Source: Chloropicon primus
Lineage: Eukaryota
Direction of reading: 5' to 3'
Length of the DNA stretch: 64,000 nucleotides
Assembly (NCBI GenBank): GCA_023205875.1
Contig: CP060759.1
Span: 930,001-994,000 of the forward strand
Shown here piece after piece: positions 24,001 through 48,097 of the stretch. Under the pieces are notes generated by a model, which was given only the letters and a program-made list of their open reading frames with translations, had not been told where the DNA came from and searched no databases. The first letter of the stretch is position 1. Each line of letters starts with the position of its first letter. Both the position numbers and the translations under genes were made by a program.

Positions 24001-27000
24001 TGTGATGTGAGCAAAGAAGATCATGTGCGCAATCTCTACACAAAGCAAAACCATCCTTGTGTGGGAATTATACATGCTGCCGGTGTCTTACGAGATGGCC
24101 TTGCTGCAAATCTCAACCATACTCAGGTCCAACAGGTATTTGACCCAAAGATCAGTGGCGCTTTGCATTTGCATCACAACACACTCCTGCAGCCATTGCA
24201 GGTATGCATCATGTTCTCCTCCATAGCTTCACTCTATGGAAGCATTGGTCAGACCTCCTACAGTGCAGCAAATACCTATCTTGATACTTTGGCTGCTCTA
24301 AGGCAAAACCAAGGCCTTCCTGCGGTCAGCATACAATGGCCAGCAATATCTGGCATTGGCATGTGGGAAGGTCTATCAAGTGTCCACAAGAAAACAACAC
24401 CATTTACTTTGGCAGTGACAGATGTTGTGAAGGTGATGAAACATCTTGTTTCAAGTGTCCCAATTCCTGCACCAAACATTGCTATGCTGCCACAAAGCCT
24501 CGTTCACGACGTAAATGTTGAGAGGAAGCAAAACGATAAAAACATGGACCCTGTTGTTGATACAAAGGATCCGTCTTGGTATGAATTGCCTTCTCAATGG
24601 AAGCAGTTGCAAGTGACTAAGCTCTCCAACAACTTCAGTGAAGCAACTTCGATGCAGCATCTCAACACATTAGATTGTGAAGAAAATGAAGTGGTAGTAC
24701 GGGTCATCTATGCAGGAGTCAATGCTAGTGATGTCAACTTCAGTGCTGGAAAGTACCATGGAAGTGAAGCAGCAGCAACGAAAGCTCTCCCATTTGCAGC
24801 TGGACTTGAAGGTGTAGGTCTTGTGGTTAAGAAAGGAAGCAAAACAAAGATCTCTATTGGGAGTCCCGTGGCATGCATGGCACCTGGTTGTTATTCAGAC
24901 TTCCTCACAATCAAGGAAAGCAGTCTACTTACTATCTCTGAGATACAAATTGAGACAGTTGCACTGCTAACATCTGGACTCACAGCAACGCTTGCGCTTT
25001 CTCAAGTCGGCCAAATGAAAAATGGTGGTGAAACCGTCCTAGTTACAGCAGCCGCTGGTGGCACCGGTCAATTTGCTGTTCAGCTTGCAAAACTGGCAGG
25101 TAACCGTGTTATAGCAACATGCAGCAACCCAAGAAAGAAAGATCTTCTTGAAGAACTCGGAGCAGAACGTGTCATCAACTACAAATTGGAAGATGTCCAA
25201 AAGTTCTCAAAGAAGAATACCCACGTGGCATTTCCCTTGTATATGATGGAGTTGGAGGGAAATTGCTTCAAAACATTCTTCCAGCTGTGTCGCCACTGGG
25301 TAGAATTGTCACCATTGGCGCCGTGTCAACATACCAAGCAGATGAAGAATCTGCGTTGAAACAGGAGCACATGCAAAGTTTGTACCAACGTGGAGTGTCC
25401 ATCTTGGGCTTTTACTTGCCCGCATACAAGAGTCAGTTCCAAAAGTACCTCAATCAACTCTGTGACCTTCATCGCACTAAGAAACTTAGGGTACACGTGG
25501 ATGTCAAGAAACGATATTGCGGGGCTGAAATGGCCCCTGATGCTGTCAAAGATCTCCACTCTGGAAAGACTCAGGGGAAGGTTGTTGTGCAAATACCACA
25601 ACATGTGCCAAAAACATTCAAAGACCTTTCTGCTCAGCTCAAAACTAATTACAGCCTGAACACGAATGCAGTACCAAAAAGCAAAGACAGCAACAAAATG
25701 CAAGTTGACGTTGTCTCCCTGACTTCCCAAGTGCAAAAAACAATTGAGCAAGCAGTCATAGATACTATTGGAGAAACCATTGACACGGAAAGTCCTCTCA
25801 TGGAAGCAGGAGTCGACTCGCTTGCTTCATCAGAGCTTATCAACAAGATCAATGATGACATGGGAACCTCTTTGGCGCCCACAATCTTGTTCGACTATCC
25901 AACAATTCAGGATCTCACACAGCACCTTGTGCAGACCCTCAAAGGACCTGACGCTACAGATCACGCCATTGAGGCTGTGGAGCGCATCCCAAACCATGAT
26001 CCAATGCATGCTGTGACAACAACAATGCTGTCTTCTGCTATCAGATATCCAAACCATACAAATTCAAACCAAAGGTTCTTGAATGTCCTTAACAACCAAT
26101 CCGAGCTTTGCGCAGTCACTCCACTTCAACGGTGGGACCGCATGGATTGGTATTCCTCACAGGGCTATGGGAACGACATCTATGTGCCCTTTGGATACTG
26201 GCTTCCAGACCTCTGGACATTCCAACCTGATGCACTAAGCATGACTTCCGCAGAATCCCTTTATGTGGACCCACAAGGAAGGAAGCTCCTGGAGGTCACA
26301 TGGGAGGCCATGTACAACACTCCTCTATCTTCAAACAAACATGCCAGAACAAATACAGGTGTTTATGTAGGATGCATGTCCACAGAGTACCCACATATCC
26401 TGAAGGGGGCAAACATGGCAAACAATGCTGGTACAGGTACTGGAAGCGGCATTAGCTTCCTTTGTGGTCGTGTTTCTTATGTGATGGGCTTCAAAGGACC
26501 ATGCATCAGCATAGATACTGCATGTTCCTCCTCGCTTGCAGCAACTCACTTGGGCAGGACAGCCATTATAGCACATGAATGTGATACAGCAACAATAGCA
26601 GGAACAAATATAATGATTGCACCACAAACAACGCAAGGTGTTTGCAATTTGCAAGCCCTTGCCGTGGATGGAAGATGCAAAACCCTTGATGCAACTGCAA
26701 ATGGATATGGCCGTGCCGAAGCTATTGCTGCCGTAATCATTGCAAATGCAAACGATACATACACGAACATGCTCAAAATGCCTGTCAACATCGTTGCATC
26801 TTTTGTGAACCAAGATGGAAGATCAAGCAGTCTGACTGCACCAAATGGGCCATCACAGTCAACACTCATCTCATCTGCTTTGAGGCAAGCAAATCTGAAG
26901 CCAGAACAAATCAACCATGTTGTCATGCATGGAACAGGAACACCTCTGGGTGACCCAATTGAGGTTGGTGCCCTGGGACAAGCATTCCATTCAGATGACA

Positions 27001-35165: not shown

Positions 35166-38100
35166 ATGGACGAGAGACCGTGCTCGACAACGCCCACGCC
35201 GAAGCACGACTTCAGGGTGTCGATCAAGCAAATCGATTACTACACGACCAAGCCGGCCCCGGACCTTGACATCTGCTACTCGCCGTTCACGGGGCAAGAG
35301 GTCCGAGTCGCACCCGTGGTGAGAGTGTTTGGCTCCACTCCTGCCGGGCAGACGGTGTGCTTGCACTTGCACAAGATCCTCCCCTACCTGTACGTGAGTT
35401 ACAAGGCCAGCCCCACCACGAGCGCCTCGGAGCACGGCATTTACCTCCGGAAGCTGGCCCACTCCATCGACGCCGCGCTGCACTTGAGCCAGCACGCACA
35501 CAAGAAGGCGGACAGCGGCGCTTCGTCCCTCAAGGCTCGATTTGTCCACACGTGCACCCTAGTGAGGGCCTTGCCGTTCTACGGGTACCACCAGAACGAA
35601 GAGTTTTTCGCCAAGATATACGTGTACGATCCAAAGGACTTGGGCAAGGTCGCCAACGCCCTTCTCAGCGGCGCGGTCATGGGGCAAGCATTCCAGCCCT
35701 TTGAGGCCCACGTGCCCTACTTGCTCAAGTTCAAGACAGATTACAACTTGCACGGCATGGAATACATCAACCTTTCCGAGGTCCTCCTTCGCGAGCCTTT
35801 GCCTGAGGACGAGGGTGAGGGAGGTCGGCAGAGGTTTCCCTGTTCCGAGAGCCTTGTTGAGCCTTACCCCGTTTGGACTCGGGACAACGTCCCACGGCAA
35901 TGGCTTTGTCAGAAGGGGGGCAGCCTTGGAGCCAAGGAGGCGCACTGCGACATCGAAGCCGACGCTTTTGGAGACTACGTGCGAAACCCTCGCTCCGTGC
36001 CCGCGATAAGCTTGCAGGAAGCGGATTCGGACATCCAGATGGTCCCATCCTTGGCGCCGATCTGGGCGGAGGAGAGGCAAAGGAGCAGGAAAATGGGGGT
36101 GCCGTTCCCGCCCAAAGCAGCGGCGTCCCCAGCGAGGAACGAGGACTTTCTCCACCGCAAGTTCAGGCAGAAGTTCAGAGGCGCGGTGGAAGAGAATCTG
36201 AGCCAAAGGAAAGACTCGGCCCCGGGCGCTCAAGGCTCTCAGGATCCTGACGCGGAGCTTTCCCTCAAGCTGACCCAGGCCGCGAATGAGGTCAAGAGCC
36301 CGGACAGGGTGAGGTGGGAGGGCCTGTCCCCCACCTCGCAGAGTCATTTGACGACCCAAGACGCGGATGACGTGCTGCTGGAGACCTTGCATTGGATGCA
36401 AGAGAGCAACGATGCCAGGGCCATCGGCGGCGATGAGATTTGGAACGGGAACATCGGCGTCCACGAGCGACCTGAAGGAGACCTGGAGGAGTACATGAAC
36501 TCGTCTCAAAAGGAGTGTGATGACATTGTGCACAGCACACTTCAATCTGCGGAGGCCGCTGGTGCATCTTCACCCGGGGGCTGGCATGGCTTGGACGAGA
36601 ACTTTGCGTCGACGACTGGCACGAGGAGCGGGGCGGAGGCTCGGTCCGAGTCTGACGATTTCGAGCCCCTGCACCTGGAGCTGACGGTGGAGGGCAGCAG
36701 CAGGAGTGACTCGGACGAGAGGGTGGAGGACCGCCTCGAAGATGCCCTGGAGATGCAGGGGCGCGCGGCCTCGGAGGAAGAGCCATCGTCGTCACTGATG
36801 GCGTTTCGGCCTATCACTTCTGCTCCGTCCTACGCGGATGTCAAGTCGTCCATGCGTCGTCTGGAGCTTCCAGATGTCGTTTACACGGAACCCTTCTTCT
36901 CCGATTCGAGGGATGTGCCGAAAAGGCCGACTTGTTCTGCTGGCCTCGAATTTAAGCTGAAGTCGGCCTCCTCCCTGGATTTGCAGGGATTCTCGTGCAA
37001 CACCAGGAGCGGAAGCGAGTACCTGGAGATGCTCGCGCCGCGGGTCGGGGGCGAACGAGGTGGCGACAGGTTGTTTTTGCTTGCTTCCAAGAAGCTTCCT
37101 CCGAGCTGCGAGGAAGTGAATTCTTGGCTTGCGAAGCGGAAAGGTCGCGGCGGATCCAAAAACGTCCACTTGCCCGAAATGGATTTCAGAATGGATCCAA
37201 ACACGGGCCAGTTCATCGATAAGAACGACCAAGGGGAGTTGCATTCCTTGGAGAACACTCAAAGGCAGAGCGCAAGCTTTGTTGCGACGCCGTCAGACCA
37301 CTTGGAGGCCAGGCCTGCTTCGCCAAAGTACGATGAGCAGGTCCCCTTTCACTTGACCGGCAGCCATTTTTACGACGACGACGACGACGACGTAACCGCA
37401 GAAAACGTTGAAAGCAACACCCCTGGCAAGCAACGCGCAGAGTCGCTTGAGATGCAAGATTTGTCTTCGGGAATGGGGGATCAGAGCGGGGCGTATGGGC
37501 CCGTGGGGAGAAGCGCGAGGAGGGAGTCAGCCAGAAGCGACGCGACCGCGCCAGGAAACGGGGTCTCTCAGATCACGCCTCCTTCCCCATTCAAGGAGGA
37601 GGGCAAGGGAAATACGCCATCCAGTCAGGCGGGCTACACTTTCAAGCACCTGGATGAAACGGAGACGCTGCACGCGTGTCCCAAGGTCCTGTCCATTGAA
37701 ATCTTTGCGGAAAACCGAGGCACCAAGCTGCCCGACCCCAAGTACGACGCTGTGAAAGCCATCGCGTTGGTCTACGAAAAACAGAAGAGCTGCAGCGGTT
37801 CCGGGGCCGGCAACGTGCTCAACCTGCTTGTCAGCGCGGAAGCGTCCCTGAAGACCTTCTTGTGCTCCATGAAGAGGAAGCATGCCCTCTCCGAGGATAC
37901 GGAATATTTCGTGGTCGAAAGTGAGGTTGACCTCATCAAGATGGCCGCGGGCAAGATTGTTCGGGCTGATCCTGACATAGTCATGGGCTACGAGATCCAG
38001 TCAGAGAGTGTGGGGTATTTGTGCGACAGGCTGTCCCTGCTGCAGCCCGGGGAATCATTCCTGCGTTTGATCTCCAGGTCCCCAAGCATCCCGAGTAACA

Positions 38101-41100
38101 GCGAATTGCTCAGCGATGAATATGGGCAGTTGCATGCCTCGGGCCTCCACAGCGCGGGGAGGATCGTGTTGAACCTCTGGAGAATTCTTCGGTCCGAGCT
38201 GAAGCTGAGCATATACTCTTTTCACAATTGCGTCCACGCCCTGACTCGGAGAAGGGTTCCTCACTTTTTGCCGGCCCAGTTGACGACTTGGTACCAGAGG
38301 GAATCCTCAAGACACCGGTGCCTTGAGCATCTCGTGCTGAGATCGGTGCTGAACTTGGAGATGATCGAGTGCCTGGACCTTGTGAGCCGAACTTGCGAGC
38401 TCGCAAAGGTGTATGGCATCGATTTCTTCTCGGTGCTCACCCGAGGAAGTCAGTACAGGGTGGAGTCGCTGCTTCTGAGGCTGGCCCACACGCAGAACTA
38501 CATCTTGATCTCTCCCTCGAAATCTCAAGTGGCGAACCAATCTGCGATGGAGTGCCTGCCCCTTGTCATGGAGCCTGAAAGCAGGTTCTACACCTCCCCC
38601 GTGCTTGTGCTTGACTTCCAGTCGCTTTACCCTTCGATGGTCATGGCATACAACCTTTGCTACAGCACGCTGGCCGGACACGTAGAATCGTCCGACCTCG
38701 CGCAGTCTCTGGGGATTCTTTCAAGGTACAGCTCGAGCGCTCTGCTGGAGGGGGACGTGCCTGTCGACGAGCTGATCTTTTCTCCAAACGGCTCTCTTTT
38801 CGCTTCTGCCAATGTGAGGAAAGGCGTCCTGCCCAGGATGCTGCAGGAAATTTTGGATACTCGCCAGATGCTGAAGAAAACCATGAAGGGGCTGAGTTCC
38901 CGCCAGAAGGCCTTGTACAGGCTTTTGAACTCCCGCCAGTTCGCTCTCAAGCTCCTGGCCAACGTAACGTACGGCTACACGGCAGCGGGATTCTCTGGGC
39001 GAATGCCCTGTTCCCAGCTCGCTGACGCCATTGTTCAATTCGGAAGGGTCACGATGGAGAATGCGATCAAAGTCGTGGAAAGCAACCCAAAGTGGCAGGC
39101 CAAAGTCGTCTACGGAGACAGTGTATCGGGCCGCACGCCTTTACTTTTGAAACATGATGGTAACATCGTCGTGAAAAGGATCTGTGATCTGAAGTTGGAT
39201 GCTCATGTGCCGACGTATACATGGACTGAACGTGGTTGGACAAAGATTGAGAATATTGTTTGTCACCGTCTTCGTCCTGACAAGCAGATGCTTCGTATCT
39301 TCACGCACACAGGGATGGTCGATTGCACGAGCGATCATTCTTTAGTGCATGCTGATGGCCATGCTATGTTTCCATCAACTATTGTATGTGGGGAGACTCC
39401 TCTTATGCAATCCTTTCCGAACGAGTGGTCGTCTAAGCATCAGGTTGTGGACGTAACATGCATCCGTGAGTTCGTGTGCAATGGTAAGACATATTCATCT
39501 GGAGTGGAATGTGCAAAATGTTTGGGATTGCCTCGGCAGCCTTCTGGTGCGTGGACGATGAAGACAAAGAAATGTGTCGTCACGGCAGACTTTGCACGCC
39601 TTATGGGGTTCTTTATGGGTGCTGGATCCTGTGGATCGTGTGGTGTCAGATCTACATGGCAGTTAAACAATGCCAACTACACAACGCTCCTTGATTATCA
39701 ATCTATTTTGGAAAAAATATTTCCAGAATTTGGGTGGACTATCATCGATACAATGGCGAGTTCTTCCGTGTACAAACTGGTTCCTTATAAGTCGCAGTAT
39801 GGTTCGGTTGTCCATTTTATAAGCGCATGGAGGAAGTTGGCTTACTGTGAAAAGAACAAGGTTGTTCCTTCTGTCATCCTCAATTCTCCACAAGAGGTGA
39901 GAAGCTCTTTTCTTCGGGGTCTTCACGATGCAGACGGAACAAAGAGATCAAAGTTACCCGAGGTTAGTCAGAAGAGTCAAATTGCTGCGCATTCCATATG
40001 TACTTTGATGAGGTCGTTGGGATACACCGTAGTTGTTGACGGCAGAAAAGATAAGCCGAATGTGTTCAGGCTAAGGTGCCGAACTAAAATTCGAAAACAA
40101 CTGAACATCGTGAAGAGAGTCATTGAACTCCCCCACGAGGAATACGTCTATGACCTCACAACTGAGAACCATCACTTCCATGCGGGCATCGGTAATATTG
40201 TTGTTCACAACACGGATTCCATTTTCGTGCACCTTCCTGGAAGATCAAGGGAGGAGGCGTTTCGCATCGGGGACGAGATCGCGACGGCGGTCACCTCCGT
40301 CAACCCAAGCCCAGTCTTCCTGAAGTTTGAGAAAGTCTACCACCCCTGCGTCCTGGTGACGAAGAAGAGGTACGTGGGCTACGCCTACGAAAGCCGTGAC
40401 CAAAGCAAGCCTGTCTTTGATGCCAAGGGAATCGAAACCATCAGACGAGATTCGTGCCCGGCTGTGGCCAAGCTGTTGGAGAGGTCGCTGCGGACCCTCT
40501 TTGAGACGGCTGACTTGTCGCTCGTCAAGAAGTACCTGCTGAAGCAATGGGAGAAAATTTTCAAGAGCCGAGTGAGCGTCCAAGACTTTGTCTTTGCAAA
40601 GGAAGTCCGCCTAGGAACGTACAGCGCAAAGGCATCGGTCGTGCCCCCCGCCGCGATTGTTGCCGCCAAGGCCATGGCGCTGGACCCAAGGGCGGAGCCC
40701 AAATACGCCGAGCGGATCCCATACGTTGTTGTCCACGGGGAGCCGGGCGCTAGGCTGGTTGACATGGTCGTGTCACCGGGAACCCTGGTGGGGAGCAGTG
40801 CCGCGCTGCGTCTGCACGAGACGTATTACATCACAAAGCAGATCCTACCGGCGCTGGAAAGGTGCTTCTCTCTCCTCGGGGCTGACGTGAAGGCCTGGTT
40901 TGCCCAGATGCCCAAACCGAATCGTTGGCAGCCCACGAAGCGGCCCATCTCGGCGTTGGGGCTGTCTGGCTTCAGCAACGAGTCCCTCGGGTACAGCCAC
41001 GAGGCGGGCACCCGGAGGACGATCGACCACTTCTACTTGTCCAAGCACTGCGCGGTTTGTGACGAAATGACCGCCACGGACCAGCCCATCTGCGACAAGT

Positions 41101-41330
41101 GCTGCGGTTCTCCTCAGGCCACGGCTCTGGCCCTGCAGGCCAGGTCCGCAACCCTTGAGAGGCACTTGATGAGGCTGAACTCGATATGCTCTCACTGCGG
41201 CGGGGGGGATCTCCGCGGGGCCATTGCTTGCTCTTCCTTGGCTTGCGGGGTCTACTATCTGAGGCAGAAAAACGCGTCCCAGCACAGCGCGTCCGTGATC
41301 CTGATGCTGTCGTCGGACGAGTTCTTCTGA
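35166..41330 (+). CDS. REV3: DNA polymerase zeta catalytic subunit (B-family), intein-containing precursor, 2054 aa
   Basis: REV3-type N-terminus (RVFGSTPAGQTVCLHLH, PFYGYH, FEAHVPY), TRGSQYRVES, VLDFQSLYPS, KLLANVTYGY, split YGD/TDS, DAKGIETIRRD, and C-terminal CysA/CysB (CAVC..CDKC; CSHC..CSSLAC). Confidence 0.96.
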   Translation: MDERPCSTTPTPKHDFRVSIKQIDYYTTKPAPDLDICYSPFTGQEVRVAPVVRVFGSTPAGQTVCLHLHKILPYLYVSYKASPTTSASEHGIYLRKLAHSIDAALHLSQHAHKKADSGASSLKARFVHTCTLVRALPFYGYHQNEEFFAKIYVYDPKDLGKVANALLSGAVMGQAFQPFEAHVPYLLKFKTDYNLHGMEYINLSEVLLREPLPEDEGEGGRQRFPCSESLVEPYPVWTRDNVPRQWLCQKGGSLGAKEAHCDIEADAFGDYVRNPRSVPAISLQEADSDIQMVPSLAPIWAEERQRSRKMGVPFPPKAAASPARNEDFLHRKFRQKFRGAVEENLSQRKDSAPGAQGSQDPDAELSLKLTQAANEVKSPDRVRWEGLSPTSQSHLTTQDADDVLLETLHWMQESNDARAIGGDEIWNGNIGVHERPEGDLEEYMNSSQKECDDIVHSTLQSAEAAGASSPGGWHGLDENFASTTGTRSGAEARSESDDFEPLHLELTVEGSSRSDSDERVEDRLEDALEMQGRAASEEEPSSSLMAFRPITSAPSYADVKSSMRRLELPDVVYTEPFFSDSRDVPKRPTCSAGLEFKLKSASSLDLQGFSCNTRSGSEYLEMLAPRVGGERGGDRLFLLASKKLPPSCEEVNSWLAKRKGRGGSKNVHLPEMDFRMDPNTGQFIDKNDQGELHSLENTQRQSASFVATPSDHLEARPASPKYDEQVPFHLTGSHFYDDDDDDVTAENVESNTPGKQRAESLEMQDLSSGMGDQSGAYGPVGRSARRESARSDATAPGNGVSQITPPSPFKEEGKGNTPSSQAGYTFKHLDETETLHACPKVLSIEIFAENRGTKLPDPKYDAVKAIALVYEKQKSCSGSGAGNVLNLLVSAEASLKTFLCSMKRKHALSEDTEYFVVESEVDLIKMAAGKIVRADPDIVMGYEIQSESVGYLCDRLSLLQPGESFLRLISRSPSIPSNSELLSDEYGQLHASGLHSAGRIVLNLWRILRSELKLSIYSFHNCVHALTRRRVPHFLPAQLTTWYQRESSRHRCLEHLVLRSVLNLEMIECLDLVSRTCELAKVYGIDFFSVLTRGSQYRVESLLLRLAHTQNYILISPSKSQVANQSAMECLPLVMEPESRFYTSPVLVLDFQSLYPSMVMAYNLCYSTLAGHVESSDLAQSLGILSRYSSSALLEGDVPVDELIFSPNGSLFASANVRKGVLPRMLQEILDTRQMLKKTMKGLSSRQKALYRLLNSRQFALKLLANVTYGYTAAGFSGRMPCSQLADAIVQFGRVTMENAIKVVESNPKWQAKVVYGDSVSGRTPLLLKHDGNIVVKRICDLKLDAHVPTYTWTERGWTKIENIVCHRLRPDKQMLRIFTHTGMVDCTSDHSLVHADGHAMFPSTIVCGETPLMQSFPNEWSSKHQVVDVTCIREFVCNGKTYSSGVECAKCLGLPRQPSGAWTMKTKKCVVTADFARLMGFFMGAGSCGSCGVRSTWQLNNANYTTLLDYQSILEKIFPEFGWTIIDTMASSSVYKLVPYKSQYGSVVHFISAWRKLAYCEKNKVVPSVILNSPQEVRSSFLRGLHDADGTKRSKLPEVSQKSQIAAHSICTLMRSLGYTVVVDGRKDKPNVFRLRCRTKIRKQLNIVKRVIELPHEEYVYDLTTENHHFHAGIGNIVVHNTDSIFVHLPGRSREEAFRIGDEIATAVTSVNPSPVFLKFEKVYHPCVLVTKKRYVGYAYESRDQSKPVFDAKGIETIRRDSCPAVAKLLERSLRTLFETADLSLVKKYLLKQWEKIFKSRVSVQDFVFAKEVRLGTYSAKASVVPPAAIVAAKAMALDPRAEPKYAERIPYVVVHGEPGARLVDMVVSPGTLVGSSAALRLHETYYITKQILPALERCFSLLGADVKAWFAQMPKPNRWQPTKRPISALGLSGFSNESLGYSHEAGTRRTIDHFYLSKHCAVCDEMTATDQPICDKCCGSPQATALALQARSATLERHLMRLNSICSHCGGGDLRGAIACSSLACGVYYLRQKNASQHSASVILMLSSDEFF
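39120..40211 (+). mobile_element. Intein (364 aa) with a LAGLIDADG homing-endonuclease region, inserted in REV3 at YGD|TDS
   Basis: Begins Ser (SVSGRTPLLL, block A). Block B is DCTSDHSL, block C-like LMGFFMGAG, block E FLRGLHDADG, block F YVYDLTTENHHF. Ends VVHN with a +1 Thr. Removing it restores YGDTDSIFV exactly. Confidence 0.95.
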
Positions 41331-42320: not shown

Positions 42321-45300
42321 ATGAAGGAAGCTCGTGGTGGCGAGGTGGTGGACATGTTCAACGAGGAGGTGGACTATGAGCCGGACGAGAGCGAGGACGA
42401 GGACGAATCGAGGGTCGCAGCGAAGGGGGACGAGGCCCGGACGAGAGCCAGCCAAGGGAAAGGAACGCCAGAAGAGTATCCGAGCAATATGCTCATGCTC
42501 GTGGGTCTCCCTCGCAGCATTGGGGGGGAGGTACGCGACTTGGTTTTCGTCGATGTTGGGCTCGCCATCACGTGACTGACGCACCTAAACCTCTCCTCTC
42601 TCTCTCTCTCTCTCTCTCTTCGGGACTTCCCTGCTGCTGGACGACGAACGCAGGAGGTGAAAACGCTGTTTCGACGGGGGGGTCTGAAGCAGGACTTTGG
42701 CTTCGTCTCCGCGGAGCTTTACGAAACGGGTAAGACGACGACGATTCTTCTTTGTGGGTGTGGGGAGCGCGTGCGCTGCGCCGTGCCGTGGTCCTGACTT
42801 TGATTTTTCCTTGTCTTGCCGTCGGGCCAGGGACGGAGGGAAACTGCGCTGTCGTGACTCTTGCTGATCCGAACAAGGTGCTGAAAGCCATGCTGGAGCT
42901 CAGAGGGAGCTCCTTCCCCGGGACGACTTTCAAGGTTGACTTCGTCGAATACGACAAGGCGTTCCACCTGACCCTCGTGGCAGCGGCGCAATACGCCGGC
43001 AAGAAGGAGGGGGGGAACACCGCGTTGGCCTCAACTGCCGCCAAGCTCGCGCAACTGGACAAGCTCAAGGTCTCTGATCTGAAAGCAGAACTCTCGAGGA
43101 GGGGACACAGCACCAACGGGATTAAGAAGAACCTCTTGAGCAAGCTGAAAAAGCTGGTCGCCATAGAGGAAGCGGCGATTCACAATTTGCCTCCGCCGGT
43201 GGTTGAGAAGATCGCGGAGCCCAACACCAAGAAAGCTGCCAGGGTCGGGGCCGGGATGACGAGCGTGTCCTTCGCGGTGGGGGAATCCGTCGAGACGAGG
43301 AAGAAGAGAAAGGTGTCGCTGGAGTGCCCTTACGATATTTTGGAGCTCGTGGCTGGGAAAAGGGAAGCCAAGTTGAGGAACGTCGAGAGAGAGTCGGGTG
43401 TCAGAATACGGGTGGACAGGAAGTTTGACCCCTGCTTGATTGAGATCAGTGGCTTCGATGAGCCTTTGGCTCACGCGAGCGGGGTCATAGGGGAGCTGAT
43501 CGAGGCCAGCCGGGCGACTGGCTTGAGGCCCTTCAGCGAGGACTTGGATGCGCACAGGATTTCGAGCATCGATCGCCCAACGACGTCTTCGGAAACGAAG
43601 CAGACAATCAAGTGCCAGACCGAGCTTCTCCCCCTCGTTCTGGGGAAAAGGCCTCAGCTGAAAAACAAGAGGGACATCGAGCGGAGGAGTGGGACAAGCA
43701 TCTACGTTTTCACGAAGCAGAACCCTTGTCTGATAGATGTCACGGGGAGCCACGGGGGGGTAGCTGATGCAATTGCAGCGTTGAAGCTGCTCATCAAGGA
43801 GAGTCGAGCCCGCTTTGCTGAGGAGACTATTCGCTGCCCTCGGTTTGCCGTCCGCTTTGTCATTGGCGTCCGTGGTTCTGTAGTAAGCGAGATCCAGGAC
43901 ACCGCGAACGTGACGATAGACATCGATCAGAGTTACGATCCGTGTAACGTCCGCATCACTGGTGACAAGGAATGTGTGGCAAAGGCCCTCAACATCGTGA
44001 GGGGCATCATCAAGGAGCGTGGAGACCCCGAGGCCATCGAGGTTGTCATGTGCCCCTTTGATCTCCTGCCTCTCGTCGTTGGGGTCGACTTTGGCTTGAT
44101 TCACAAGATCGAAAAGGAGACTGGGGCAGCAATCGCTGTGGACAAGAAGTTCGATCCTTGCGCGTTGCACGTCCGTGGAAGCCGGGAAAGCGTGGATCGT
44201 GCGAGCGCGGCCATCAAGAGATCTGTGAAGGACAACGAATCTCTCCTCGTGTCGAAGGTCATAGATTGCCCCAAAGCCGTTGTGGCCTACGTCATAGGCA
44301 AGAATGGTGTGACCGTGAGCAAAGTAGAGAGAGACACGGGTGCAAAGATCGAAATTGATGAGAGGGTGGCACCGTGCAAGATCAGCATCACGGGACTCGA
44401 GGAGAACGTGACCAAAGCGGTAGAGTGGATGGGGACTTTAATCAAGGAAGCTCCAGACTTCAGGGAGACGATCGAATGCCCCTACAATATTTACATGGTC
44501 ATTGTTGGCCCCCAGCACGCCACGATGCGCGACATTGAGAGGGAGACCAATACCAGAATAAGAGCAGACAGCAATTACGACCCGTGCTTGTTTCATATCG
44601 AAGGGAAGAAGGAGAAGGTGATACGTGCATGCGAGCTAGTGGGCAAGCTCGTTGAGGAACACAAGATGTCGTTTGCTCGCGAGACCGTCGAGTGCGGGCT
44701 GCCTGCTATTGGGCCCCTCCTTGGTGAAGGAGGCTCAAACCTAACGAAGATTAGGAAGGAAACTCAGACGTTCATGCATGTGGACAATGACGTTGAACCG
44801 TGCAAGATTAATATTTCTGGCACCAAGGACCACGTTGCCCACGCCATGAGGATTGTGAAGGAAATCATCGACAGAAACACTGACATCGATACGATCGAGT
44901 GCCCCAAGGAACTCATTCACGTTGTGGTTGGTATCCAGAAAGACAAAAAGTTCTCAAACATCATAAATATTCAAGAGGCGTGTGGCATCAGGGTGCATGT
45001 GGCAACGGATCCCGATCCGTGTGTCATCGATCTTCTTGGTTGTGAGAAGGGTGTGGCCCAAGGCAGGCAGATGGTCATGCGTTTGATAAACGAGTGCAAA
45101 GCTGGATTCGTTGAAGATACTTTGGATTGCCCCAAGTCCATTGTTGGCTACATCATAGGATCAAGGGGGACAAACGTGCAAAAGGTCGAGGATGGATCGG
45201 GCGCAAAGGTTCAGATCCGCCAGGACTGTGACCCTTGCCGAATTCGCGTCTCTGGAGACAGGGAGAGCGTGGACAAGGCACTGGAATTGGTGAAGAAACT

Positions 45301-48097
45301 CATGCTGCAGAGTGGTGGCCCTCGAACCGAAACTTCGGTGGAGTGTCCTTTCGACATTCTGCGGCTTGTTGCGGGCATTGAAGGACAGAACCTGCGCACA
45401 ATCGAGAGGGAGACGCACACGAGGATTGATGTCGACAACAAGTATGACCCTTGCGTGATCCACATTCGAGGGAATGACGCCAAGGTGGCTGACGCTACGG
45501 ACAGGATCCAGCGCCTAATGGAAGAGCACAGCGCTTCCCTCGCGGAAGAGACTTTGGATTGCCCCAGGCATACGGTGGGCATCATCATTGGCAAGGGAGG
45601 TACGACCGTGCGCAAGATCGAGAAGGACACGGGTGCGAGGGTCGATATCCGCCAGGACTGTGACCCTTGCCAAGTTCACATCTCTGGAGACAGGGAGAGC
45701 GTGGACAAGGCGCTCGAGGCTGTGAAGAAACTGTTGATCTCCGACGCTCCTGAGGTTAGAAAATCAGTGGAGTGTCCTTTCGACATTCTGCGGCTTGTTG
45801 CGGGCATTGAAGGACAGAACCTGCGCACAATCGAGAGGGAGACGCACACGAGGATTGATGTCGACAACAAGTATGACCCTTGCGTGATCCACATTCGAGG
45901 GAATGACGCCAAGGTGGCTGACGCTACGGACAGGATCCAGCGCCTAATGGAAGAGCACAGCGCTTCCCTCGCGGAAGAGACTTTGGATTGCCCCAGGCAT
46001 ACGGTGGGCATCATCATTGGCAAGGGAGGTACGACCGTGCGCAAGATCGAGAAGGACACGGGTGCGAGGGTCGACATCCGCCAGGACTGTGACCCTTGCC
46101 AAGTTCACATCTCTGGAGACAGGGAGAGCGTGGACAAGGCGCTCGAGGCTGTGAAGAAACTGTTGATCTCCGACGCTCCTGAGGTTAGAAAATCAGTGGA
46201 GTGTCCTTTCGACATTCTGCGGCTTGTTGCGGGCATTGAAGGACAGAACCTGCGCACAATCGAGAGGGAGACGCACACGAGGATTGATGTCGACAACAAG
46301 TATGACCCTTGCGTGATCCACATTCGAGGGAATGACGCCAAGGTGGCTGACGCTACGGACAGGATCCAGCGCCTAATGGAAGAGCACAGCGCTTCCCTCG
46401 CGGAAGAGACTTTGGATTGCCCCAGGCATACGGTGGGCATCATCATTGGCAAGGGAGGTACGACCGTGCGCAAGATCGAGAAGGACACGGGTGCGAGGGT
46501 CGATATCCGCCAGGACTGTGACCCTTGCCAAGTTCACATCTCTGGAGACAGGGAGAGCGTGGACAAGGCGCTCGAGGCTGTGAAGAAACTGTTGATCTCC
46601 GACGCTCCTGAGGTTAGAAAATCAGTGGAGTGTCCTTTCGACATTCTGCGGCTTGTTGCGGGCATTGAAGGACAGAACCTGCGCACAATCGAGAGGGAGA
46701 CGCACACGAGGATTGATGTCGACAACAAGTATGACCCTTGCGTGATCCACATTCGAGGGAATGACGCCAAGGTGGCTGACGCTACGGACAGGATCCAGCG
46801 CCTAATGGAAGAGCACAGCGCTTCCCTCGCGGAAGAGACTTTGGATTGCCCCAGGCATACGGTGGGCATCATCATTGGCAAGGGAGGTACGACCGTGCGC
46901 AAGATCGAGAAGGACACGGGTGCGAGGGTCGACATCCGCCAGGACTGTGACCCTTGCCAAGTTCACATCTCTGGAGACAGGGAGAGCGTGGACAAGGCGC
47001 TCGAGGCTGTGAAGAAACTGTTGATCTCCGACGCTCCTGAGGTTAGAAAATCAGTGGAGTGTCCTTTCGACATTCTGCGGCTTGTTGCGGGCATTGAAGG
47101 ACAGAACCTGCGCACAATCGAGAGGGAGACGCACACGAGGATTGATGTCGACAACAAGTATGACCCTTGCGTGATCCACATTCGAGGGAATGACGCCAAG
47201 GTGGCTGACGCTACGGACAGGATCCAGCGCCTAGTGGAAGAGCACAGCGCTTCCCTCGCGGAAGAGACTTTGGATTGCCCCAGGCATACGGTGGGCATCA
47301 TCATTGGCAAGGGAGGTACGACCGTGCGCAAGATCGAGAAGGACACGGGTGCGAGGGTCGACATCCGCCAGGACTGTGACCCTTGCCAAGTTCACATCTC
47401 TGGAGACAGGGAGAGCGTGGACAAGGCGCTCGAGGCTGTGAAGGACCTCCGACGTCGCGCGAAGGACGGTGAGGATGCGGAGGATGCGGAGGATGTCGTT
47501 GAGACTTTGGATTGCCCCAGGCATTGCGTGGGTGCGATCATAGGCAAGGGAGGTACGACCGTGCGCAAGATCGAGAAGGACACGGGTGCGAGGGTCGACA
47601 TCCGCCAGGACTGTGACCCTTGCCAAGTTCACATCTCTGGAGACAGGGAGAGCGTGGACAAGGCGCTCGAGGCTGTGAAGGACCTCCGACGTCGCGCGAA
47701 GGACGGTGAGGATGCGGAGGATGCGGAGGATGTCGTTGAGACTTTGGATTGTCCCAGGCATTGCGTGGGTGCGATCATAGGCAAGGGAGGTACGACCGTG
47801 CGCAAGATCGTTAAAAGCACGGGTGCAAAAATTAAGATCCGCCAGGATTGCGACCCTTGCGTAGCTGTTGTCCGTGGACCTCGTGAGAGTGTGGACAAGG
47901 CGCTCGAGGTGGTGAAGGGGATGATGGAGGAGATACCTGCTCCTGATCTCAGGACCGATCTTGGGACCGGTCCCGGGGCAGACCTAAGGAAGTCTCTCGA
48001 AAGTAAAAAGAGCTCTCCAGATACCAAGAGGAAGAGCCAGGGCACGGGCTCGGCATCCGCGGAGAAGAAGTCCAAGAGAATGAAACGTCTCACGTAA
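42321..48097 (+). CDS. Multi-KH RNA-binding protein: RRM-like + SAP + ~21 KH domains; exons ~42321-42530, 42654-42729, 42831-48097
   Basis: Two phase-compatible GT-AG introns rebuild an RRM-like segment (MLMLVGLPRSIGGEEVKTLF...NCAVVTLA...FKVDF). SAP is LKVSDLKAELSRRGHSTNGIKKNLLSKL. Repeated KH units with IIGKGG-type GxxG loops follow. Confidence 0.85.
45338..47440 (+). repeat. Near-identical 429-bp tandem repeat (~5 copies), each encoding two KH domains
   Basis: GAGTGTCCTTTCGACATT recurs at 45341, 45770, 46199, 46628 and 47057. Confidence 0.93.
47264..47810 (+). repeat. 237-bp tandem repeat encoding single KH domains
   Basis: GAGACTTTGGATTG recurs at 47264, 47501 and 47738. Confidence 0.9.

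Follow-up and report, generated by a model that had tools for sequence, protein, structure and literature searches.

A pol-c-type intein in the nuclear DNA polymerase zeta gene of Chloropicon primus, likely acquired recently from a mirusvirus-type virus

The closest described systems to the insertion analyzed here are the pol-c inteins of Mimivirus, CroV and archaeal PolB (Ogata et al. 2005, PMC549080), which share with it the YGD/TDS site, Ser1, the TxxH block, an Asn end, a +1 Thr and LAGLIDADG motifs. In the part of that paper drawn on here, direct homing between polymerases so distant was deemed implausible. Later work (Green et al. 2018, PMC5784728; Gallot-Lavallee et al. 2023, PMC10710043) described, in the sections covered, clusters of viral and nuclear inteins, with Nucleocytoviricota proposed as vectors. 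Within the covered text of PMC5784728, DNA polymerase inteins are listed for viruses only and no virus is reported to share an intein with its host.

For Chloropicon primus itself, one bracketed sentence among the covered passages of PMC10710043 names inteins in Pol delta (QDZ18123.1) and Pol zeta (QDZ21998). The Pol zeta intein as such is therefore already in print and not new, and the impression of the first-pass annotation that REV3, the Pol zeta catalytic subunit, was not an established intein host has to be given up. QDZ21998, likewise an intein in a green-algal nuclear Pol zeta, is probably the protein described here or a close orthologue. The covered passages give its accession alone, without site, donor or endonuclease state, and two supplements of the same paper returned no match when searched for the alga. 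The covered parts of PMC10827195 and PMC12198294 hold nothing on a Chloropicon Pol zeta intein, and we found no report in the open-access literature of a probable mirusvirus source, a very recent transfer, a damaged nuclease or a repeated invasion of REV3.

Our analysis indicates that a pol-c-type intein, predicted to splice by the class 1 route, sits in the active-site motif of nuclear Pol zeta and was likely acquired recently by homing from a PolB gene, the donor being a mirusvirus-type virus with the alga as its likely host. Compared with the pol-c inteins covered from PMC549080, this one lies in a cellular REV3, is 30% identical to the CroV intein, carries a linker insertion and has lost the Asp of motif 1. 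Against the view of direct homing taken there, the two inteins compared here are 88% identical while their exteins are 27% identical. The cases described in the covered parts of PMC5784728 and PMC10710043 are network clusters with NCLDV, whereas the present one is a near-sister pair involving a mirusvirus-type virus (Duplodnaviria).

The window (the whole stretch of 64,000 nt analyzed) contains the host gene with the following features.

35166..41330, + strand: REV3 (Pol zeta catalytic subunit) ORF, 2054 aa with the intein and a predicted 1690 aa after splicing, from a presumed start Met; groups in the REV3 clade (100/100)
35211..35372, + strand: REV3_N domain (residues 16-69), E 2.4e-11, which identifies the host as Pol zeta
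39111..39119, + strand: YGD, the N-side half of polymerase motif C (pol-c intein site, so named in the part of PMC549080 covered)
41049..41264, + strand: C4 zinc fingers at the C-terminus, a usual feature of cellular Pol zeta/delta that is missing in the donor-type PolB

Pfam domains of the 2054-aa ORF are REV3_N, POL3_N, exonuclease, DNA_pol_B and zf-C4pol, so that REV3_N, the PolB core and the C-terminal C4 zinc fingers are all present alongside the REV3 grouping in the tree. Surrounding genes in the window encode PKS, Hsp70, AP2, KH, photolyase-family, GlgC-type, AMP-binding and Mre11 proteins. Together, the domains and these ordinary cellular neighbors identify the host as nuclear Pol zeta rather than a polymerase of an endogenous virus, which bears out the assignment to nuclear REV3 made in the first-pass annotation. 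The REV3 core is most similar to an empty REV3 (66%) and then to chlorophyte REV3 proteins such as that of [Myrmecia] bisecta (65%), and the complete protein corresponds to an annotated public protein (NCBI, UniRef, nr, EukProt).

Two neighboring loci are repetitive in their own right. The giant multi-module PKS at window positions 1-31916 (GC 46%) contains module repeats of up to 12.8 kb that are 98-99.7% identical, with one frame change near 25150-25360, either from recent duplication or as an assembly effect. A SAP-domain protein with 19 KH_1 matches (42737-48097) includes a near-identical tandem unit of ~429 bp at 45113-47443.

The insertion and its parts are laid out as follows.

39120..40211, + strand: intein, 364 aa, with a Hint splicing domain (~1-98 and ~329-364), a linker insertion and a LAGLIDADG domain (~155-328)
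39120..39122, + strand: Ser1 nucleophile (block A); Ser in 133/133 extracted inteins, by an extraction pattern that itself demanded Ser
39327..39338, + strand: block B, T70-S-D-H73, its T and H found in 59/59 relatives
39414..39581, + strand: linker insertion (~residues 99-154), a beta-hairpin and helix, also in mirusvirus-type inteins; contains the unconserved C131xxC134
39600..39626, + strand: LAGLIDADG motif 1, LMGFFMGAG; codon 39621-39623 encodes Ala168 in place of the catalytic Asp, and residues 156-168 form a helix in the model
39912..39938, + strand: LAGLIDADG motif 2, LRGLHDADG, with Asp272 intact
40206..40211, + strand: terminal His363-Asn364 (block G), from the translation and the alignment of relatives
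40212..40229, + strand: +1 Thr in TDSIFV, with Ile at +4 as in the donor clade

Excision of the stop-free insert (1092 bp, beginning SVSG and ending VVHN, in frame between YGD and TDS) restores the conserved host motif YGDTDS, as in a class 1 intein. The class 1 splicing residues are complete (S1, T70, H73, D345 of block F, H363, N364 and T+1), and these positions are matched in 58-59 of the 59 aligned relatives. Pfam intein and LAGLIDADG matches are weak and stay under the curated cut-offs (27.1 vs 35.8 bits). Despite that score, a Hint fold is indicated by the structure model built from a 60-row alignment (pLDDT 95.7, against 36.7 for a single-sequence fold) and by its top PDB matches, all of them intein homing endonucleases (best E 1.1e-16). 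PDB 2cw7, TliVMA 7qsu, PI-PfuI 1dq3 and PI-SceI 1vde likewise combine Hint with a two-motif LAGLIDADG domain; identity to them is 12-19%, and while those proteins are described as homing endonucleases, the window copy is short of one catalytic Asp. The linker insertion (~99-154) presumably resembles NUMOD1/IENR1 DNA-binding repeats. Judged from its sequence, 39120-40211 is thus a real intein of ordinary chemistry at a known site, with splicing predicted, and the first-pass description of an in-frame element with Ser1, TxxH, His-Asn, +1 Thr and LAGLIDADG-like blocks at YGD/TDS of REV3 stands.

In the window protein, a Ser1 acyl shift, transfer to Thr+1 and cyclization of Asn364 would restore YGDTDS and release a 1690-aa Pol zeta, so that, by intein chemistry, Pol zeta activity would depend on splicing. 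Since the active site of the unspliced protein is disrupted, selection for splicing would persist as long as Pol zeta matters.

The source of the element was sought through its closest relatives. Among longer proteins (best 120 of 245 matches) the leading hits to the intein were P0011 (88%) and P0012 (74%), and the eight near-length matches included P0003 at 70% and the CroV intein at 30%; when representatives clustered at 50% identity were searched exhaustively, none of the 150 matches listed exceeded 55%. Over 370 columns the window intein and that of P0011 share 87.8% identity, whereas their polymerase cores share 26.7%; the viral relatives of P0011 are more distant from it (74%, 71%) than the window intein is. 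An intein tree of 38 rows, picked from a 106-row FastTree, places the window intein and P0011 as sisters (100/99), nested with P0012 and P0003 (100/100). The extein tree (39 rows) sets the same pair apart: the host falls in REV3 (100/100) and P0011 in a separate clade of 17 rows (99/99) together with the IMG/VR contigs G001, G002 and G004. Both trees were computed under LG+G4, without a mixture model, and labelled mirusvirus, herpesvirus and eukaryotic Pol delta references are absent from them. The donor PolB clade, which lacks C4 fingers, stands apart from REV3 and from other viral PolBs (99/99, in a tree with no labelled mirusvirus reference), and P0011 and P0012 are themselves without zf-C4pol, POL3_N and REV3_N.

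Searches for donor DNA were less productive. Query P0001 against viral contigs returned three loci at 31-36%, P0012 and alignment A1 as queries returned zero, and a metagenome scan gave two loci, of which only the 3-kb L004 belongs to the donor subclade, that of P0011 itself; an Erv1/Alr gene lies 100 bp downstream in it.

Related inteins (27-33%) also occur in topoisomerase II-type and PF03159/PF17846 proteins (P0101, P0106, P0112, P0114-P0118, P0124 and P0126). In P0099, P0312, P0345 and P0400 a pol-c intein sits in a PolB that does have C4 zinc fingers; these proteins may be viral, or divergent forms of Pol delta.

Gene content was surveyed on G001 (227 kb), where 138 of the 140 ORFs of at least 170 aa were scanned over ~223 kb. 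It carries Terminase_6N (E 2.6e-8, with a T4 gp17 match), TBP, an M16 peptidase, heliorhodopsin, two C1 peptidases and Ras, in addition to topoisomerase II, PCNA, ribonucleotide reductase and RPB1. Genes of this kind are counted among the mirusvirus core or enriched genes in the covered part of PMC10132985, which gives frequencies in mirusviruses versus Nucleocytoviricota of 59% vs 0% for TBP, 60% vs 2% for the M16 peptidase and 64% vs 5% for heliorhodopsin. All three are on G001, and heliorhodopsin is found in two of four records. The Duplodnaviria terminase is present on G001 only, a relative of P0011 and not its own contig, and was not found in the three other fragments. No match to Capsid_NCLDV or Pox_A32 at E<=1e-5 was found among the 138 ORFs of G001, which is 29% complete; PF04451 and PF04665 searches across genomes failed to pick up even the positive control G005 and carry no weight. 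Because the P0011 PolB groups (99/99) with a contig bearing a terminase, TBP, an M16 peptidase and heliorhodopsin, we regard it as mirusvirus-type and not Mimivirus-like. The P0011 polymerase thus likely belongs to a mirusvirus, on the basis of its tree position and the gene content of a relative. The first-pass annotation had proposed a virus-to-host jump, to be checked by comparison with viral PolB inteins; a recent transfer of this sort does fit the trees, but the source named there, Mimivirus or algal NCLDV, does not, the nearest inteins being in the mirusvirus-type PolB clade and the CroV intein only 30% identical.

A host link and the place of replication are both touched on in the parts of the mirusvirus literature drawn on here: mirusvirus subclade M1 is predicted from co-occurrence to be linked with Chloropicales (preprint 10.1101/2021.12.27.474232), and polymerase-encoding mirusviruses are suggested to replicate partly or wholly in the cytoplasm (PMC12768974), which bears on how donor DNA would reach the nucleus. 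As a separate observation, two ORFs adjoining a mirusvirus-type PolB on L006 (13573-17994 and 19019-21154) end in LKF.

The endonuclease domain of the host copy appears damaged. Two LAGLIDADG helices are predicted in the model (156-168 and 258-272), and the acidic metal-binding residue expected at the end of each is found only in the second: Asp272 is kept, and Ala168, which the first-pass annotation did not remark on, stands where 49 of 59 relatives have Asp. A pattern could read this position in 89 of 108 long inteins: 85 have Asp, and Ala occurs in the window copy only; the viral sister intein (P0011) retains the residue. Both LAGLIDADG acidic residues are required for cleavage. Owing to this D168A replacement at the first catalytic Asp, the host copy is probably immobile. 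Changes derived in the window copy number 14, of which the nuclease has ten, the linker three and the Hint domain one (binomial p 0.029), a bias that would fit the decay phase of the homing cycle. The signal is modest: 22 of the 45 differences are unpolarized, and the contrast between window and viral branches is not significant (Fisher p 0.089).

The route that we propose begins with a non-lethal infection in which the viral LAGLIDADG nuclease would have cut the near-matching YGD/TDS DNA of host REV3. Repair would then have copied the intein from viral DNA, perhaps with about six downstream codons, after which the endonuclease would have decayed while the splicing domain stayed intact, leaving a splicing-competent and probably immobile passenger. 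The Ile at +4, present in P0011, P0012 and P0017 and in none of 113 empty REV3 (a sample of mostly land plants), may mark a short co-converted tract. Over 18 nt around the host site, 14 are identical to the empty sites of the viral clade (in both loci available). We had tried this similarity as a pointer to mirusviruses and rejected it, given that matches range from 12 to 17 over all ten viral loci and that an unrelated virus scored 17, which makes 14/18 unexceptional.

Empty sites next to introns were also encountered. A viral PolB on G001 (L007:12293-12365), whose core is 93% like that of the intein-bearing P0030, has an empty site followed 3 nt later by a 73-nt intron of spliceosomal type (GTACGT...CTAAC...TTACAG), removal of which gives YGDTDS; according to the part of PMC10710043 covered, Anaeramoeba polymerases have an intron at the same offset. 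In run X8, record 15 is a REV3 relative ~81% alike over window positions 38916-39120 that diverges at the insertion site and continues as Thr and then a GTGAGT-like donor (only ten loose letters, in one low-depth contig). It may represent an empty allele in which an intron follows 4 nt after the site. For a relative ~80% alike in run X7, none of the contigs listed spans the site.

Other origins for the element have to be weighed against transfer from a mirusvirus-type virus. A nucleocytovirus could have been the donor, with the mirusvirus-type PolB gaining this intein in parallel, in a host common to both viruses. Inteins of the pol-c type are widely distributed among NCLDV PolB, as reported in the covered parts of PMC549080 and PMC5784728, and P0003 (70% intein identity), P0013 and P0022 combine inteins of the same 11-row intein clade with exteins that fall outside the mirusvirus-type clade, indicating that such inteins also move among other large-virus polymerases and that an unsampled donor is possible. 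Yet the sister of the window intein is P0011 (88%, 100/99), the best intein outside that clade reaches 70% and CroV 30%, and we consider a nucleocytovirus donor unlikely. Distinctly unlikely, in our judgment, is that the virus took the intein from the algal gene or that both received it from another cellular gene such as algal Pol delta. That C. primus is reported with inteins in both Pol delta and Pol zeta, and that spread between paralogues is described in Anaeramoeba (both in the covered text of PMC10710043), would suit this reading, but no zinc-finger PolB appears among the close intein matches listed, the best being P0099 at 31%. It is also opposed by the nesting of the host intein among viral inteins, by the catalytic Asp that the viral sister keeps and the host has lost, and by the closest REV3 cluster found, which is empty in all 12 members read that cover the site (P0136 and 11 others).

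Composition agrees with the first-pass remark that the insert is more AT-rich than its surroundings: GC is 0.454 in the intein against 0.58-0.60 in the exteins, and GC3 is 0.47, whereas extein segments of 364 codons all lie at 0.69-0.79. We dropped GC3 as proof of foreign origin, since the PKS gene of the same window is equally low (GC3 0.43); composition by itself is consistent with such an origin but does not show it. We give very little credence to reading the insert as an intron or as a chimera with viral DNA created during assembly. Sliding by one base does make the insert start with GT, yet none of the four equivalent junction registers ends in AG, so there is no GT..AG, and the intact reading frame and splicing residues speak against both readings. 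Single contigs from two further samples of two studies bridge both junctions: the X4 contig covers the whole gene with one difference and the X5 contig covers 38373-41500 with zero, with no joint listed at the insert ends of either. The RNA status of these two runs is a guess, a point that leaves some room for an intron. The first-pass annotation further suggested that a Cys-rich intein might render splicing stress- or redox-conditional, and domestication as a switch gating translesion synthesis was accordingly considered. The richness is real (14 Cys in 364 residues against 34/1690 in the exteins, second highest of 108 inteins), and conditional splicing has been proposed for other inteins in the covered part of PMC10710043. 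But neither splice junction has a Cys, Ser1 and Thr+1 both being hydroxyl nucleophiles; the Cys count of the viral sister is also 14; and the CxxC pair is unconserved, C131 being common to 3/24 relatives and C134 to 1/23, while the only widely shared Cys are C171 (53/59) and C69 (31/59). With a recent arrival and empty relatives also speaking against an old regulatory role, redox-conditional splicing finds no support, and we hold such a switch to be very unlikely.

REV3 seems to have been reached by inteins more than once. In the other REV3 clusters, a sample of mostly land plants, 113 of the 117 listed are empty at the site and four have an intein there: P0134 (EukProt, Caulerpa lentillifera) and the metagenomic P0131, P0132 and P0133. 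The five REV3 inteins are mutually 24-40% identical, and four of them have closer partners in non-REV3 polymerases (88%, 53%, 59% and 48%). The fifth, that of Caulerpa (333 aa at YGD/TDS), is degenerate, with unrecognizable endonuclease motifs and no close partner; no report of an intein in Caulerpa was found by title or abstract in the open-access literature. Starred branches of the intein tree force at least three origins of REV3 inteins, and a single clade of them was rejected (AU p=0.00016, under LG+G4 and with P0134 as a long branch). P0131 (ENA, 12 cluster members) is peculiar in another respect, being a 3432-aa ORF that fuses a REV1-like Y-family polymerase to REV3, possibly a natural REV1-REV3 fusion; its REV3 intein is 53% like a mirusvirus-type intein.

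We speculate, at about even chances, on a broader scenario. A mirusvirus of Chloropicales would have homed its PolB intein directly into host Pol zeta, the two genes being 27% alike, and REV3 would be a place where inteins land repeatedly: at least three eukaryotic lineages, and probably five, would have acquired one independently, with different viral clades as sources. REV3 inteins would then serve as fossil tags for the hosts of uncultured large viruses, and spliceosomal introns 3-4 nt past the site would shield viral and host alleles.

As for transfer from a mirusvirus-type virus, the virus-host pair at 88% would be an unusually recent trace of intein movement from a virus to a nuclear gene, and it concerns mirusviruses, a virus group without an intein link in the open-access papers found. 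The pair also gives genetic support to the predicted association between mirusviruses and Chloropicales, hitherto a matter of co-occurrence only. It names a testable combination, the intact viral nuclease and the empty target site of the host, and would represent homing across polymerase paralogues that have only a short DNA motif in common.
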